A DNA stretch of 64,000 nt. Origin: an uncultured Phycisphaerales bacterium (GTDB lineage: Bacteria > Planctomycetota > Phycisphaerae > Tepidisphaerales > Tepidisphaeraceae). Below, in pieces: positions 1,040-44,918 of the stretch (position 1 is its first letter; every line of letters starts with the position of its first letter). Location of the stretch: contig CAVWLP010000002.1 in assembly GCA_963755915.1 (NCBI GenBank), forward strand, positions 2,816,001-2,880,000, read 5' to 3'. Below the pieces are notes generated by a model. That model was not told the DNA's origin, did no database searches, and saw nothing but the letters and a program-made list of their open reading frames with translations. A program made the translations under genes and the position numbers.

Positions 1040-1114
1040 TTTTCGCGCAGGAGCGCTGAGGCGCAGAGAATAAGAAACTCTCTTTCTCTGCGCCTCAGCG
1101 CCTCAGCGCGAAAA
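1040..1114. repeat. Family-A REP-like palindrome (9-nt-periodic GCGCWGAGG arms)
   Basis: TTTTCGCGCAGGAGCGCTGAGGCGCAGAGAA ... TTCTCTGCGCCTCAGCGCCTCAGCGCGAAAA, an intergenic inverted repeat. Confidence 0.85.
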
Positions 1115-8027: not shown

Positions 8028-8215
8028 CCTTGACCATCCTTTCCAGTTACGTCGACGTCAAAATTACGGCCCGCCACACCCGAAATCAAGACGTTAAAAA
8101 AATAAAAAGCTCACGCAGAGGCGCAAAGGCGAAGAGAAATGATTCAACCTGACCTTCCCCACGTTTGGTGGGCGCGGCCTGAAGCCGGATAATCCGGCTG
8201 AAGGAGCGAATTGCC

Positions 8216-9375: not shown

Positions 9376-9446
9376 CGATTTGGCCGCGCCCACCGAACGT
9401 GGGGAAGGTCAACCTCTGCGCCTTTGCGCTCTGCGTGAGATTCTCT

Positions 9447-32825: not shown

Positions 32826-33988
32826 TAATCCCGTTCGGCACGGGGTTCGCGCAAGCAGCAAGATATTGAGATTGCGCCTTTGATCTTTTTATGGCATGCT
32901 GCCGGACGTGCAGGCAAGACTGAAGGAAAAAGAGATCCTGTGCCTCGGGCAGGCGATCACGCTGGTCGACGGGACGGTGCTGACGGCGCTGAGTCGGCTG
33001 GCCAAATCCGCTTGCGGCATCAATGCGCGCTACAACACCTCCCGGGACGGGAAAGCGGTCTATGGCTGGCGTTTGCACGTTCAATTCGATCTGGAGACGT
33101 TCAAAGTCCATCGCCTCGACCGCACTGGCGCTCGCAACGCGGGGGCCAACCGTGAAAACAACGTCCTGCGGCGCAGCCTGGAAGCAGGACGGTGCTATGT
33201 AGGAGACGGCGGCTACGCCGACCGGAGCCTCTTTGCGGACATCGCCGCGGCGCAAAGCTCCTTTGTGATGCGGGCCGCGGAAAACTCGGTGTTTGAGCTG
33301 TTTGAAGAACGATTGCTTTCACAGGAAGCATTGGACGGCGGCGTGGTGCGAGACGCGCTGGTGAAACTCGACGGCCTGGAGACGGCGGCGGATAGGGTGG
33401 TGCGACGGGTGGAAGTGCAGGTGAAACCCCATCCGCGCCGCACGCGCAGCGGCAACAAGCCGACGGACCTGATCATCCTGTACACGAACCTGCTGGACCT
33501 GCCGGCGGAATTGATCGCCCTGATTTATCTGTACCGCTACACCGTTGAGTTGTTCTTCCGGATCTTCAAGCAACTGCTGGGCATGCGTCACCTGCTGAGC
33601 CAACGCCAGGAGGGGATCGACATCCAAATCCACTGCGCGCTGATCGTCTGCGTGCTGATTCAGCTGATCAGCGGCAGGAAGCCGAACAAGGCGATGCGGA
33701 ACATGATCGGCTGGTATCTGCTGGGGCTGGCCGAGGAACAGGACGTGCTTCGATTCCTGAACAAGCCGGATAACACCGGGATTAAGCTGAGGGCAAGAGC
33801 GGAGGCCTTGAAAAAACTGGGAGTAAACTGAAGGGGAATCCGTCGCCGCGGAGACCTCGCGGTTGATGCTGCGCTCTTGCGGACGCCGGCGTGCAGCAGG
33901 GGAAAGTAAAAGTATCTAAGCTTCAATTGTTTCGCGTCCTCCACAGCTTTGGAATGCTCCGATGAAGCCTGCGTGCCGAACGGGATTA
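32826..33988 (+). mobile_element. IS4-family insertion sequence, 1163 bp, probably internally deleted
   Basis: Perfect 17-bp inverted repeats TAATCCCGTTCGGCACG (32826-32842 and 33972-33988); 9-bp target duplication ACAAAAGGT (32817-32825 and 33989-33997). Confidence 0.93.
32896..33831 (+). CDS. IS4-family DDE transposase, lacking the N-terminal domain
   Basis: LVDGT, YVGDGGY and the Y-x2-R-x3-E-x6-K signature YLYRYTVELFFRIFK. Confidence 0.85.
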   Translation: MLPDVQARLKEKEILCLGQAITLVDGTVLTALSRLAKSACGINARYNTSRDGKAVYGWRLHVQFDLETFKVHRLDRTGARNAGANRENNVLRRSLEAGRCYVGDGGYADRSLFADIAAAQSSFVMRAAENSVFELFEERLLSQEALDGGVVRDALVKLDGLETAADRVVRRVEVQVKPHPRRTRSGNKPTDLIILYTNLLDLPAELIALIYLYRYTVELFFRIFKQLLGMRHLLSQRQEGIDIQIHCALIVCVLIQLISGRKPNKAMRNMIGWYLLGLAEEQDVLRFLNKPDNTGIKLRARAEALKKLGVN

Positions 33989-34189
33989 ACAAAAGGTAAC
34001 ACTCCGCAACAAGCTGGGGGGTTTGGGGGAGATGGGTAAGGCATTTTGGAGTATTTGGACATTTTAAGATTTCATTTAAGGTCTATTGTGGTCATGGCTC
34101 AAACGGAATCGAATGAAAGAATCCGTTTTGCGCGGAGGCGCGGAGGCGCTGAGCTTGAGACCGGATTTCTCCGCGCCTTTGCGCCTCTG

Positions 34190-35629
34190 GTGCGTCAGTG
34201 AAACCGGTTTTGTCTTGTGAACTGAAAGGAGTTCACCATGGAATGACCCGTTAGCCGTGTAGCCGCCCGGGCGTGACGACGGAGCAATCGGTCGCGCGAA
34301 GCCCCGGAAGGCGAAGGCGCGAGCCGTAGCGTTAAGCGAACCCAAACCAGCCTCGTTACGCCAATGGGAGTGGCCAACCCGTCAGAGAGGGCCAAGCCGG
34401 CGCGGACGATGAAGCAGCGGGTGCGAGCAATCGTCCGGCTCCTCGGGGTCGATGGGGACGGCGCGTGCCGACAGACAAGATCGGGAACTGAGAGACCCCA
34501 CGCATCGTTGTGCGGCTCGTTGGAAAGACATAACCAAGGGACGGGAAGCGTGGGGAGTCGGATGGGCTCATAGTAGCTGAGAAGCGGGGTAATGCCCGTG
34601 AGCGGAGGCGAAGCCTGCCGCGAGCCAAGGAGCCCTGACGGTATCGAGCGGAAGTAAGAAGAAGAGAGGCCCGCTTGCAGGGACAACCTGACAGTACGGA
34701 TGATCCGACAGACTTGCCGGAGCACCTGAGGGTGAACTCCAGGGGTCTGCCGGGGAAAGTCTTTCTTCTGAGACAGAAGCTATACCTCAAAGCCAAGCGG
34801 GAACCGGGGTTTCGGTTTTACACCTTGTACGACCGGATCTGCCGGCGCGATGTTCTGGAAGCGGCGTGGGACCGGGTGTCCGCCAACGGCGGGGCGCCCG
34901 GCTTGGACGGGGTGAGCATCGAGAAGGTGCAAAACTCCGAGCACGGCGTCAGTGGATTCCTGAGCGAGATCGAAGAATCGCTCAAGACCCGCACCTACCG
35001 CCCGCAGCCGGTGAAGCGCGTGTACATTCCCAAAGCCAACGGCAAGCGGCGTCCATTGGGCATCCCCACGATCCGAGATCGCGTGGTGCAGATGGCGGTG
35101 CTGCTGCTCATCGAGCCGATCTTCGAGGCGGATTTCCTGGACTGTTCGTATGGATTCCGTCCCGGTCGCTCGGCTCACGATGCGCTGGAGGCGATCAAGC
35201 AAAACCTCCAGCAGGGCCGAAGGGAAGTGTATGACGCGGATTTGCAGTCGTACTTCGACACGATTCCCCATGAGAAACTGATGGCGTGTGTCCAGAAGCG
35301 GATCACGGACGGAAGCGTGCTGAAGCTGATCCGGATGTGGCTGAAGGCGGTGATCGTCGAAGAAGGCGAGAAGCCCGGCGATCCACCGAAAGTCACCCGG
35401 AGCAAACAGGGAACGCCGCAGGGCGGAGTGATCTCGCCGCTGCTGGCCAACCTATATCTGCACTGGTTTGATAAATTGTTCCACCGATCCGATGGCCCGC
35501 ATCGCTGGGCGAACGCCCGGCTGATCCGGTACGCCGACGACTTTGTCATCATGGCAAGGTATATAGGCCCTCAGATCAAGCAGTTCGTGGAGCTGAGCGG
35601 CAATCGGGTCGTTCAGTTCTCTACTCTAC
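34190..35629 (+). mobile_element. Group II intron, internally deleted (RT C-terminus, domain X and ribozyme domain V missing)
   Basis: 5' end GTGCG at 34190; ~480-nt leader; RT ORF; domain-VI-like hairpin GAGCTGAGCGGC/GTCGTTCAGTTC at 35590-35619 followed by the terminal CTACTCTAC; the flanks rejoin into an intact palindrome arm. Confidence 0.88.
34675..35592 (+). pseudogene. ltrA: Group II intron reverse transcriptase/maturase, truncated
   Basis: RT0 [71 protein letters not shown]. Homology stops about 18 codons after YADD. Confidence 0.9.
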
Positions 35630-35834
35630 CGCGAACCTTGTATTTTTCCCGCGTTTCGGGAGAAAAGGATGGGACCACGGATTTCGCGGATGGGCGCGGA
35701 TAAGAGGGAATGGCGTTTGTCCGTGGACGGCGAATAATGGAAATGTAACTCTTCGCTAAGGGACGCGAGTCCGCTCAACTACTTTTTCTTTCCGCCGATT
35801 GAAATACGGCTTGGCTGCACGGAGGATAAGGGCA

Positions 35835-37512
35835 ATGAATTCCGGCTCCGAGCTTCCGGTGATCGGCCGCGTCGCATATTTCACGAGCAACGACCATTGG
35901 TTGATTCACGAGATCGCTGCGCGATCAAGGAACATGCGCAGAAAACCCCGAAATGGATTCCAACCGCCCGGCAGGGGGCGCTGTACGGCTGGAGCCGATT
36001 TGTGTCCGACGTCACAAACGGGGGCTTTGCGCAGTTCTTCTGGAATACGCGCGGAAACAAACGTGCAAAAGAGCTGTGCGATCTGCTCGATTTCCTCGAA
36101 CTCGTCGAAGCCAAAAAGGTACTTGTCAAAGCGATGGCCATCTTCAGTGCGAATCAGGAAAAGTTTCAGTTGAGCGATCCCCGGGGACACCGGCTTTTTG
36201 CCGGCGTGCAGGAATTCAAGCGGTTGGAGGGCGAATTTTCAAAACTCGACTTCGCCGGTGCGGAAGCGGCCATTGCGGACTGGGTGCGGCGCGATATTGC
36301 AAATCTGGTGATCGGGGACGATGGGCAGGCAATCGACACCTCCTTTACCGGCACGATCGAGGTCCGTCGTCCCGACGGCTCTCTTGCCGAGCAGCTCGAG
36401 GTCAAAAATGGCCGAGCCGACGGGACGTACCGGGAATTTTTTGAGGATGGCGCCGTTCGGGAGTTCAAACTCTATCAGGCCGGCGAATCCATGGGCGAGT
36501 ATTGGCCCAATGGGGAGGTCGCAAAAAAGGAATCGAAGCAAGGCGAGGAGAGAATCATTGAATGGTATTATCCGAGCGGAAAGCTTCATAAACGCATGGT
36601 GCTGGGAGCCTCCGGCATTTCGCCCGAACCAGTGCGCCTCTTTCATGAAAATGGACAACTGGCCGAAGAATTGTCCGTGCGCCGAAGAAACCCTTACGGC
36701 CCCTGGCTGAAGTTTTTTGAAGACGGATCCCCGCAGCTCCAGGCAGAATTCATTGATGACCGTGAGCTGATCGTTCGAAACGCCTGGGATGTGGATCGTC
36801 GCCAGGTTGTGGCGGATGGGAATGGGACCTTTGACGATGACGGTCGCAGCATTTACCTCGCACACACCATTTTTACTCGCTCCATGTGGCGTCGCGTGAG
36901 CGAGGTGCGTGACGGGATTCGCCACGGCCAAACGACGGTTTACCACAAGGGAGTTCTATGGCGCACGGAGAACTATTCGGGCGGGAAACTTCATGGCGCC
37001 GCCATACTTTATTGGGACAATGGCCGCATCCGGAGCACCAGCGAATATGAAAACGGCAAACAGGTTAAAACCGAGTCGTTTCCGAAATTCGATAATCCGG
37101 TGCCGGCCGTCCTGCTGAGCGTCGAGGCCAACGCAGATCTTTATGAAGCGTGGAATCATCTTCGGCTGGATGAGTATCCGTCGGCCCGGAATCTCGACGA
37201 AATCCGCGCCGAGCTGCAACTTCCACAGTTTCTGATGGAGGTGCAGGAGCGCAATCGGCTGGGGACAATTAAATCCAGGTACGAGGACTGGAATACATTT
37301 GACGACAGCATTGCTTATTTTCTGACGGTGAGTCCGTCGGGGGAGGTTGTGGAGACGCGGGCCAACGGCAGCGGGACATACTCCAGCAAAGATTGGAACA
37401 CCTATGTTCCGCTACTCAAAAAGCTGCGTTTCACGCCCGGATGTGTGCGCGGTGCGCCGTGAAGTGCCGCGTGCTGGCACACGTGAACCACACATTTGTG
37501 GAAGGCGGCTGA
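35835..37512 (+). CDS. DUF4375(DMP19)-like domain + MORN-variant (YwqK-like) repeats + possible TonB-C-like tail (probable frameshifts at both ends)
   Basis: DVTNGGFAQFFWN motif; repeated (Y/F)(Y/H/W)xNG units; C-terminal FLTVSPSGEV...LRFTPG, continuing AVKCRV in a shifted frame; GGAGGA upstream of ATG 35835. Confidence 0.65.
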
Positions 37513-37659: not shown

Positions 37660-37804
37660 ATTTTCGCGCCGAGGCGCAGAGCGCGGAGAATAGGAAATTG
37701 AATTTCTCTGCGGGCTCTGCGTCTCAGCGCGAACCTTTCGCTTTTCCGGCTTTTTTTCGAAAAGAGGATTGAACCACGGATTTCGCGGATGGGCGCGGAT
37801 AAGA
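37660..37804. repeat. Family-A palindrome followed by a 32-bp repeat shared with 35674-35705
   Basis: TTTTCGCGCCGAGGCGCAGAGCGCGGAGAA...TTCTCTGCGGGCTCTGCGTCTCAGCGCGAA, then ACCACGGATTTCGCGGATGGGCGCGGATAAGA. Confidence 0.85.
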
Positions 37805-44814: not shown

Positions 44815-44819
44815 GAATA

Positions 44820-44912
44820 TCTCACGCAGAGGCGCAGAGGCGCGGAGGAATTAAGATTGGAAATCGGGCTTGATTTGAATTTGCTCTGCGAGCTCTGCGC
44901 CTCTGCGTGAGA
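44820..44912. repeat. Family-A palindrome
   Basis: TCTCACGCAGAGGCGCAGAGGCGCGGAG ... CTCTGCGAGCTCTGCGCCTCTGCGTGAGA. Confidence 0.85.
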
Positions 44913-44918
44913 CCTTTT

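Follow-up and report, generated by a model that had tools for sequence, protein, structure and literature searches.

The stretch of DNA analysed here, 64,000 nucleotides (nt) from the genome of an uncultured Phycisphaerales bacterium (hereafter the window; positions 2816001-2880000 of C2, one of the three contigs of the 6.6-Mb assembly G000), carries a group II intron that interrupts one arm of a palindromic repeat, members of which are dispersed through the genome. We propose, with a probability of about 0.85, that this intron represents a retrohoming element with a IIB-like ribozyme of IIE/IIF-type features and a reverse transcriptase (RT)/maturase devoid of an endonuclease (En) domain, and that the dispersed repeat is its homing site, which would be selected by pairing of the intron RNA with the repeat DNA.

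The intron has the ends assigned to it by an earlier sequence-only reading of the window, beginning with GTGCG at 34190 and finishing with ...CTACTCTAC at 35629, and it matches the Rfam family group-II-D1D4-6 at 34228-34458 (51.2 bits, cut-off 49). That reading had overlooked the state of the copy. A blastn search of the genome shows that its positions 1-1402 and 1401-1440 match, at 99.9-100% identity, twelve full copies in which the second block follows the first 531 nt further on; the window copy is thus 1440 nt long compared to 1973 nt for the full copies, with 533 nt missing internally. The deletion takes away the RT C-terminus, the X/maturase domain, domain V and the start of domain VI, and the RT frame retains its motifs as far as YADD before running across the deletion junction into the 3' exon. 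Having lost domain V and the maturase domain, the copy should be able neither to splice nor to move and is predicted to be inert. It is very probably a recently decayed copy of the 1973-nt mobile group II intron.

The twelve full copies display what is expected of a mobile group II intron: the GTGCG start, the D1D4-6 match, an Intron_gpII match covering domains V and VI (53.6 bits) and ending in ...CUAC, and an RT with a maturase (X) domain. Nine of them are identical and the three others carry one single-nucleotide polymorphism each, all outside the open reading frame (ORF); this near-identity points to recent spread. The genome also contains a 118-nt 5' fragment (C2:4221478) and a 3' piece that corresponds to a 5'-truncated copy of 273 nt (C2:332521). 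The 462-aa protein of the full copies scores 389.9 bits against TIGR04416 (cut-off 300) and matches RVT_1 (1.4e-33) and GIIM (8.6e-14); a Pfam scan of this protein found no other family and no endonuclease domain. Domain V occupies intron positions 1893-1925. At the intron 3' end, CUACUCUAC is kept in relatives, and hand pairing places the branch-point A probably at 35623, with ...CUAC as the 3' splice site. With crude longest-ORF gene calls, all 15 copies and fragments lie between ORFs, and no significant co-orientation with the upstream gene was detected (9 of 13 copies, p = 0.13).

The insertions share a single register. In the genome, every one of the 14 5' junctions reads GCGCCTCTG/GTGCG, where the slash marks the insertion point and the nine exon bases are common to all, and the 14 3' junctions all start with CG, continuing as CGTGAG (7), CGCGAA (4), CGCGAT (1) or CGCCTC (2). 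Each occupied site has its own loop, left arm and outer flanks; as the outer sequence is different each time, the insertions are independent. This common register in differing surroundings is what the sequence-only reading had anticipated when it suggested that the intron lineage homes to a multicopy non-coding repeat. A hidden Markov model (HMM) of the repeat arm finds 75 arms in the genome at E ≤ 10 and 59 at E ≤ 1; the latter group into 43 elements, 16 of which are two-armed and 11 intron-adjacent. In the window, the arm HMM recovered all four sites previously attributed to the family (near 1040, 8110, 37660 and 44820), plus one further at 9412 (Table 1).

The repeats are dispersed and mostly intergenic, with stems of ~20-30 bp that are unusually long for repetitive extragenic palindromic (REP) sequences or for REP doublets forming hairpins (REPIN), and with a total of only 43 elements. 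Empty sites of the form GCGCCTCTGCGYGA, in which the arm is continuous, number 42 in the genome; most of them are located in palindromes with arms made of tandem 8-nt units, and many of these palindromes carry the site on both strands. Removing the intron from the window (75 nt before 34190 joined to 30 nt after 35629) gives a sequence that folds as one long hairpin of -51.6 kcal/mol, as had been proposed, with the insertion point in the 3' arm, 6 pairs from the base. The same holds for 11 of the 13 reconstructed empty sites (-42 to -64 kcal/mol; insertion 5-8 pairs from the base of the 3' arm), the two sites without a full hairpin being C2:4624852 and C2:3780871. Two of the 14 insertions are found at an internal unit boundary of the arm, one unit further inside, and the insertion rate at internal unit boundaries is about the same as at the terminal boundary. 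Using a strict pattern on this 81% complete genome, no link to REP-associated tyrosine transposases was found: there are two Y1_Tnp matches, on contig C3, and no repeat arm lies within 3 kb of them.

The exon-binding sites (EBS) of the intron were mapped from 80 loci of many phyla encoding related RTs (43-82% identity), in which the intron ends were located and the 5' regions aligned. For each lineage, the letters of the EBS1 and EBS2 loops were taken from the alignment columns, and their pairing with the cognate intron-binding sites (IBS) of the exon was compared to 10000 permutations of the cognate pairing. For the loop homologous to 34381-34388, the cognate mean over 30 lineages is 5.83 pairs compared to 3.51 for non-cognate pairings, a value reached by 0/10000 permutations, and the helix is about 5-6 bp or longer in 27 of the 30 lineages. 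This covariation supports the earlier assignment of CAGAG, in a loop closed by CCC/GGG, as EBS1; the motif is within a hairpin loop in both the consensus fold and the Rfam alignment. The column of EBS3 is Watson-Crick complementary to exon position +1 in 26/26 lineages, which makes it the best column of the alignment. A pairing between exon position +2 and the base 5' of EBS3 was also considered; inspected by eye in about 11 lineages, it proved inconsistent.

The predicted EBS2 lies elsewhere than first thought. The segment put forward as EBS2 by the sequence-only reading, 34311-34321, is a conserved ribozyme block: its GCGAA is retained by 23-26 of 29 lineages irrespective of the exon, and its pairing with cognate exons is no better than with unrelated ones (4.79 vs 4.81 pairs, p = 0.58). 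The alignment instead designates the bulge loop 34356-34365, with 4.23 cognate vs 3.73 non-cognate pairs (permutation p = 0.0012). Hand-paired examples of this loop with its exon are CGCCAG with TTGGCG (L002), CGCTAA with TTAGCG (L010), AACCC with GGGTT (L033), GACTG with CAGTC (L041) and CACGG with CCGTG (L042). In G000 it pairs only with GCG at -9 to -7 and, at the site in the window, also with TT at -12/-11. In the consensus fold, domain Id (DId) consists of an outer helix, the EBS2 bulge and a three-way junction from which the EBS1 hairpin and a second, long hairpin emerge, and compensatory changes are found in 18 of the 25 pairs. Of the two pairings proposed earlier, that of CAGAG is upheld and that of 34311-34321 is not.

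Several ribozyme features point to the class of the intron. Without the ORF, the ribozyme is ~580 nt long (1973 nt minus ~1390 nt). Domain V is 33 nt long with an AGC triad, and a GAAAN pentaloop is called by RNAfold in 17 of 24 distinct relatives; in the G000 intron RNAfold adds a G-C pair that leaves only AAA in the loop, and the relatives indicate GAAAC. The long hairpin that follows EBS1 has many compensatory pairs, and its loop can pair by hand with intron positions 57-63 (candidate α'). Introns of classes IIE and IIF are characterised, in the accessible text of Nagy et al. (2013), by a 5-nt loop in domain V, an AGC triad, an IIB-like ribozyme of 450-700 nt, an En-less protein, EBS1/EBS2 in DId with an extra bulge loop, and a DId3 stem-loop with α' in its terminal loop. 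The pentaloop, the AGC triad, the size, the En-less protein and the DId with EBS1 and EBS2, including the extra bulge loop, are all present here. By its ribozyme features, the intron is thus IIB-like, probably of class E/F type and likely a member of class F.

Four other genomes were searched, each with a query made of 40 nt of 5' exon and the first 200 nt of its own intron, and in three of them related introns behave similarly. A Gemmatimonadales genome (G001) has 2 introns, with the exon arm recurring in at least 38 further dispersed copies, an Acidobacteriota genome (G002) has 4 introns and at least 27 further copies, many in inverted pairs, and a Rubripirellula genome (G004) has 5 introns and 15 further copies. 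The repeats of G001 and G002 fold as long palindromes (-45 to -82 kcal/mol), and their arms are tandem units each containing IBS2 and IBS1 of the resident intron. The relatives in G001, G002 and G004 are thus located in dispersed repeats specific to each host, with binding sites retuned to them.

We note in passing some features of individual loci. A related intron in a contig filed as Bathyarchaeota (L020; 60% RT identity) is located in the 3' arm of a perfect tandem-unit palindrome (z = -12.3). At L029 (contig CAZNOE010000930.1, ~252-1410), two tandem 5' intron regions on one short contig are separated by a domain V/VI match (837-918), one related intron thus immediately following another copy. 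At L053 (5393-5901, minus strand), a second, unrelated group II intron (Rfam D1D4-3, D1D4-1, Intron_gpII) is found 1.5 kb downstream of the Rubripirellula copy. L004 and L005, from bins assigned to Terriglobales and Verrucomicrobiota, carry the same intron with identical flanks over the 60 nt shown, which suggests a binning error or a very recent transfer. In the window itself, a different short tandem motif, GGATTTCGCGGATGGGCGCGGAT, is present just downstream of the intron (35650-35710) and resembles the unit of the Gemmatimonadales repeat of G001.

These data can be assembled into a mechanism. The intron RNA would pair with the DNA at three sites, EBS1 CAGAG with CTCTG (-5 to -1), EBS2 with GCG (-9 to -7; its CGC being extendable to CGCCAA) and the G of EBS3 with C (+1), and the word matching these sites falls exactly where the tandem 8-nt units of the palindrome arms meet. 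As the target word is the unit junction of the repeat arms, every insertion would land in a repeat, in most cases with 5-8 pairs between the insertion point and the base of the 3' arm. Reverse splicing would be followed by cDNA synthesis primed without an endonuclease, in accordance with what is known of En-less group II introns.

Could the intron have no preference for the repeat at all, inserting wherever a word of ~9 nt occurs, with selection having purged the copies inserted in genes? Empty sites with the core word GCGNCTCTG/C number 54 within repeat arms and 66 elsewhere, and every one of the 14 occupied sites lies in an arm (Fisher p = 3.6e-5). That the 66 core sites outside repeats are all empty, that every copy or fragment lies between the crude ORF calls and that an intron without endonuclease depends on short pairings are compatible with this explanation, which we nevertheless regard as unlikely. 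The copies are nearly identical and thus young, leaving little time for selection, and sense insertions into genes need not be lethal, as group II introns can be removed by splicing. Moreover, C at -6 and G at +2 are common to all occupied sites and extend the word to 11 nt, GCGCCTCTG/CG, and 48 of the 51 empty places of this longer word have a repeat-type continuation (42 CGYGA, 6 CGCCTC). Since this word is almost confined to the repeat, sequence alone could restrict the intron to it. The same repeat association in the relatives of three other genomes also argues against purging. Selection against genic insertions is a partial alternative for the confinement to repeats.

A second alternative is that the intron reads a DNA hairpin as a shape with the help of only a short IBS1, in the manner of class IIC introns, an analogy drawn in the sequence-only reading. 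Class C introns resemble the G000 intron in their En-less protein, the DNA inverted repeats at their target and their many copies in non-coding sites; the very stable hairpins at 11 of 13 sites with insertion in the 3' arm, an RT whose best match among solved structures is the IIC enzyme GsI-IIC, and the position of relatives L042-L047 about 10 nt past a G-rich hairpin all go in the same direction. The domain V triad of IIC introns is CGC, and the AGC triad and pentaloop found here are not expected of this class. IIC introns lack EBS2 and have a shortened EBS1, as described in the accessible text of Nagy et al. (2013), and they are inserted just after the stem-loop of a terminator or an attC site without sequence-specific homing, according to the available part of the review of Zimmerly and Semper (2015). 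In contrast, the G000 intron has an EBS3, an EBS2 bulge that covaries with the exon, and an EBS1 of at least 5 pairs in nearly all lineages; it inserts inside the stem, with 5-8 stem pairs remaining 3' of the site, and the 11-nt word is invariant at occupied sites. Neither are the repeats terminator-like: they are not called by a consensus scan, their loops being too long, terminator-like sites are not clearly above those in shuffles (24 vs 17.4, standard deviation 3.7), and their gene context displays no excess of convergent gaps (convergent 4, divergent 9, tandem 14). Two observations argue against a need for the hairpin shape: two of the 14 insertions are at internal unit boundaries, one unit deeper in the arm, and two are at hairpin-less sites. 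Overall, the analogy does not hold and reading of the hairpin as a shape is very unlikely; we infer that sequence, not hairpin shape, is recognised. Finally, amplification of intron and repeat as one block, or insertion of the repeat beside introns, would account for the same short repeat sequence always flanking the intron copies, but it is already contradicted by the different loops, left arms and outer flanks at every site, the 42 exact empty sites with a continuous arm, the splitting of the arm at one base by the intron and the still empty opposite-strand site of occupied palindromes.

Homing to the repeat by RNA-DNA pairing thus remains the reading that we favour, although a number of observations weigh against it or limit its extent. 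Selection, rather than avoidance by the intron, may explain why the 66 core sites outside repeats are empty, and a "programmed" specificity can be claimed to no more than about 11 nt. The family-wide EBS2 signal is modest, and the EBS2 pairing in G000 is short, with 3 contiguous pairs, or 5 of 6 in the window's own site. Compared to solved structures, in a library without class D, E or F proteins, the RT scores highest with GsI-IIC (223 bits, 6.7e-65), ahead of the T.el4h type (152 bits) and LtrA (148 bits). The expectation that intron copies in related genomes would sit in dispersed repeats held in G001, G002 and G004 but not in the fourth genome searched, a Planctomycetota (G003), where the 13 introns share only about 14 nt of 5' exon and no further copies of the exon arm were found; repeat homing is therefore not universal among relatives. 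Of 47 sites of relatives (including two flawed rows, L029 and L058), a fold clearly better than that of shuffles is seen in only 17, and IBS1 is paired to upstream sequence in only 19. Homing to palindromes is thus common in the clade, not universal. The G000 assembly is metagenome-assembled, 81% complete and with 8% contamination. Lastly, we compared the window at 33600-36100 with the public contigs of four DNA runs: they end at repeats, one seems to be chimeric with the 3' flank of another copy, and no filled/empty polymorphism was detected in these contigs, none of which joins 34189 to 35630 as they break at the repeats.

Several known systems share part of these properties. The closest are the class F introns of the basal group Ge.ur.I1, So.us.I2, Pe.th.I2 and c-Ku.st.I1, which like the G000 intron combine an En-less RT/maturase with a small IIB-like ribozyme, a 5-nt domain V loop, a long domain VI (by hand pairing in the G000 intron), EBS1 and EBS2 in DId, and α' in a terminal loop (in the G000 intron a candidate from hand pairing). 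Ge.ur.I1 was grouped with introns of Solibacter and Kuenenia, with hosts including Acidobacteria and Planctomycetes, in the part of Toro and Martinez-Abarca (2013) available to us, and the relatives found here include Solibacteraceae and Planctomycetota. For Ge.ur.I1-1 (IIF), the accessible text of Nagy et al. (2013) reports repeated intron-binding sites 9 and 19 nt upstream in the 5' exon, as well as alternative upstream 5' splice sites used in vitro; as far as this text describes it, the tandem-unit architecture of the 5' exon is the same as at the G000 intron sites. Unlike the G000 intron, this group is not described, in the parts of the literature accessible to us, as homing to a dispersed family of palindromic repeats.

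Other elements use comparable landing sites. ISPpu9, ISPpu10, ISPa11 and IS1397 have extragenic palindromic repeats as landing sites, and unlike the G000 intron they are DNA transposons. RmInt1, a class D intron of Sinorhizobium meliloti, homes into the insertion sequence (IS) ISRm2011-2; it is likewise En-less and IIB-like and retrohomes into a multicopy dispensable target by EBS-IBS pairing, but that target is a transposase-bearing IS, whereas the one in G000 is a non-coding palindrome of 60-90 nt with the site on both strands. In Pseudomonas putida KT2440, a group II intron is associated with REP sequences in 2 of 9 copies, according to the available part of Tobes and Pareja (2006), a weak association when compared to the 14/14 junctions, the fixed register and the RNA guide matching the repeat in G000. 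In the literature searched, with most subscription journals and supplements outside the search, we found no group II intron homing to REP elements beyond this entry.

Our results extend known retrohoming rather than revealing a new mechanism, with a class E/F-type intron having a dispersed palindromic repeat family as its homing site. Bacterial group II introns follow three target strategies in the accessible part of Zimmerly and Semper (2015), namely specific homing sites, terminators and attC sites, and on balance we favour counting the repeat family as a fourth. Repeat homing would explain how an En-less intron reaches a dozen copies without harm to genes, and the relatives in three other genomes have guide sequences retuned to the repeat of each host. 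As the palindrome presents the same target on both strands, the arm that is chosen reports strand or replication bias, which constitutes a natural experiment. Mapping the exon-binding sites of this little-studied intron type to the base is also useful for retargeting. A bolder version is that the repeats are not passive: the arms in G000, G001 and G002 are tandem units of exactly one IBS2+IBS1 target, and therefore the intron clade and the repeats may be co-evolving across phyla, the arms being built by the intron, for instance if it were excised at an upstream unit boundary and reinserted carrying one unit, or the repeats being non-autonomous elements moved by the intron RT. We regard this version as quite unlikely, the fourth-strategy version being much more likely.

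Table 1. Intron, exon and repeat features of the window (window coordinates; a dot in the strand column denotes a feature with arms on both strands).
Feature	Position	Strand	Description
Intron copy, internally deleted, predicted to be splicing-dead	34190-35629	+	1440 of 1973 nt; blastn vs full copies; Rfam D1D4-6
Palindrome, 5' part	34126-34189	+	left arm ~34126-34153, loop, right arm to insertion point; arm HMM match 34166-34189
IBS2 and IBS1 (predicted)	34181-34183; 34185-34189	+	GCG; CTCTG
3' exon	35630-35636	+	C35630 = IBS3; CGCGAAC finishes base of palindrome right arm
EBS1 (predicted)	34383-34387	+	CAGAG; loop of small DId hairpin; pairs exon -5 to -1 CTCTG
EBS2 bulge loop (predicted)	34356-34365	+	UUACGCCAAU; core CGCCAA 34359-34364; unpaired in consensus structure
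EBS3 (predicted)	34451	+	G, intron position 262; just 3' of DId closing helix; pairs C at 3' exon +1
Rejected EBS2 candidate	34311-34321	+	GCGAAGGCGCG; conserved ribozyme block
Truncated RT reading frame	34675-35703	+	ORF list and translation
Deletion junction	35590-35591	+	2-nt (GA) microhomology at joint
Domain VI remnant, 3' strand	35592-35629	+	Rfam Intron_gpII alignment of full copy ends at this base
Intron-free repeat member, two arms	1041-1113	.	arm HMM 1041-1074 (-), 1083-1113 (+)
Repeat arm with empty target site	8108-8138	-	arm HMM E = 5e-5; exact empty site
Repeat arm	9412-9441	+	arm HMM E = 0.011
Repeat arm	37662-37691	-	arm HMM E = 0.084
Complete two-armed palindrome, empty target site on each strand	44819-44913	.	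arm HMM 44819-44849 (-), 44885-44913 (+)

The window copy has a DDE transposase gene on one side and a MORN/DMP19-like gene on the other; the former (DDE_Tnp_1, 1.5e-19; 32896-33831, plus strand) immediately precedes the repeat that carries the intron. In the left arm of this palindrome (34125-34129), the contigs of three public soil runs carry an extra T after 34125 and a T>C change at 34129.

On C2, with a single exception, the intron copies lie on the plus strand between 1.30 and 4.27 Mb and on the minus strand at 0.33-0.35 and 4.22-4.62 Mb. This pattern would fit one orientation per replichore if the origin were near the DnaA-like gene at 1.09 Mb (a second DnaA-like gene is at 2.25 Mb); the GC skew is noisy and we make no claim on this point. 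The DnaA-domain search also matched two families of identical AAA-type ORFs of 334 and 304 aa (~10 and ~30 copies, respectively), found at about 40 places (e.g. C2:55705, 574059 and 1926339). We take these ORFs to be probably helper genes of IS21 type (IstB-like), and the genome would therefore be rich in insertion sequences.

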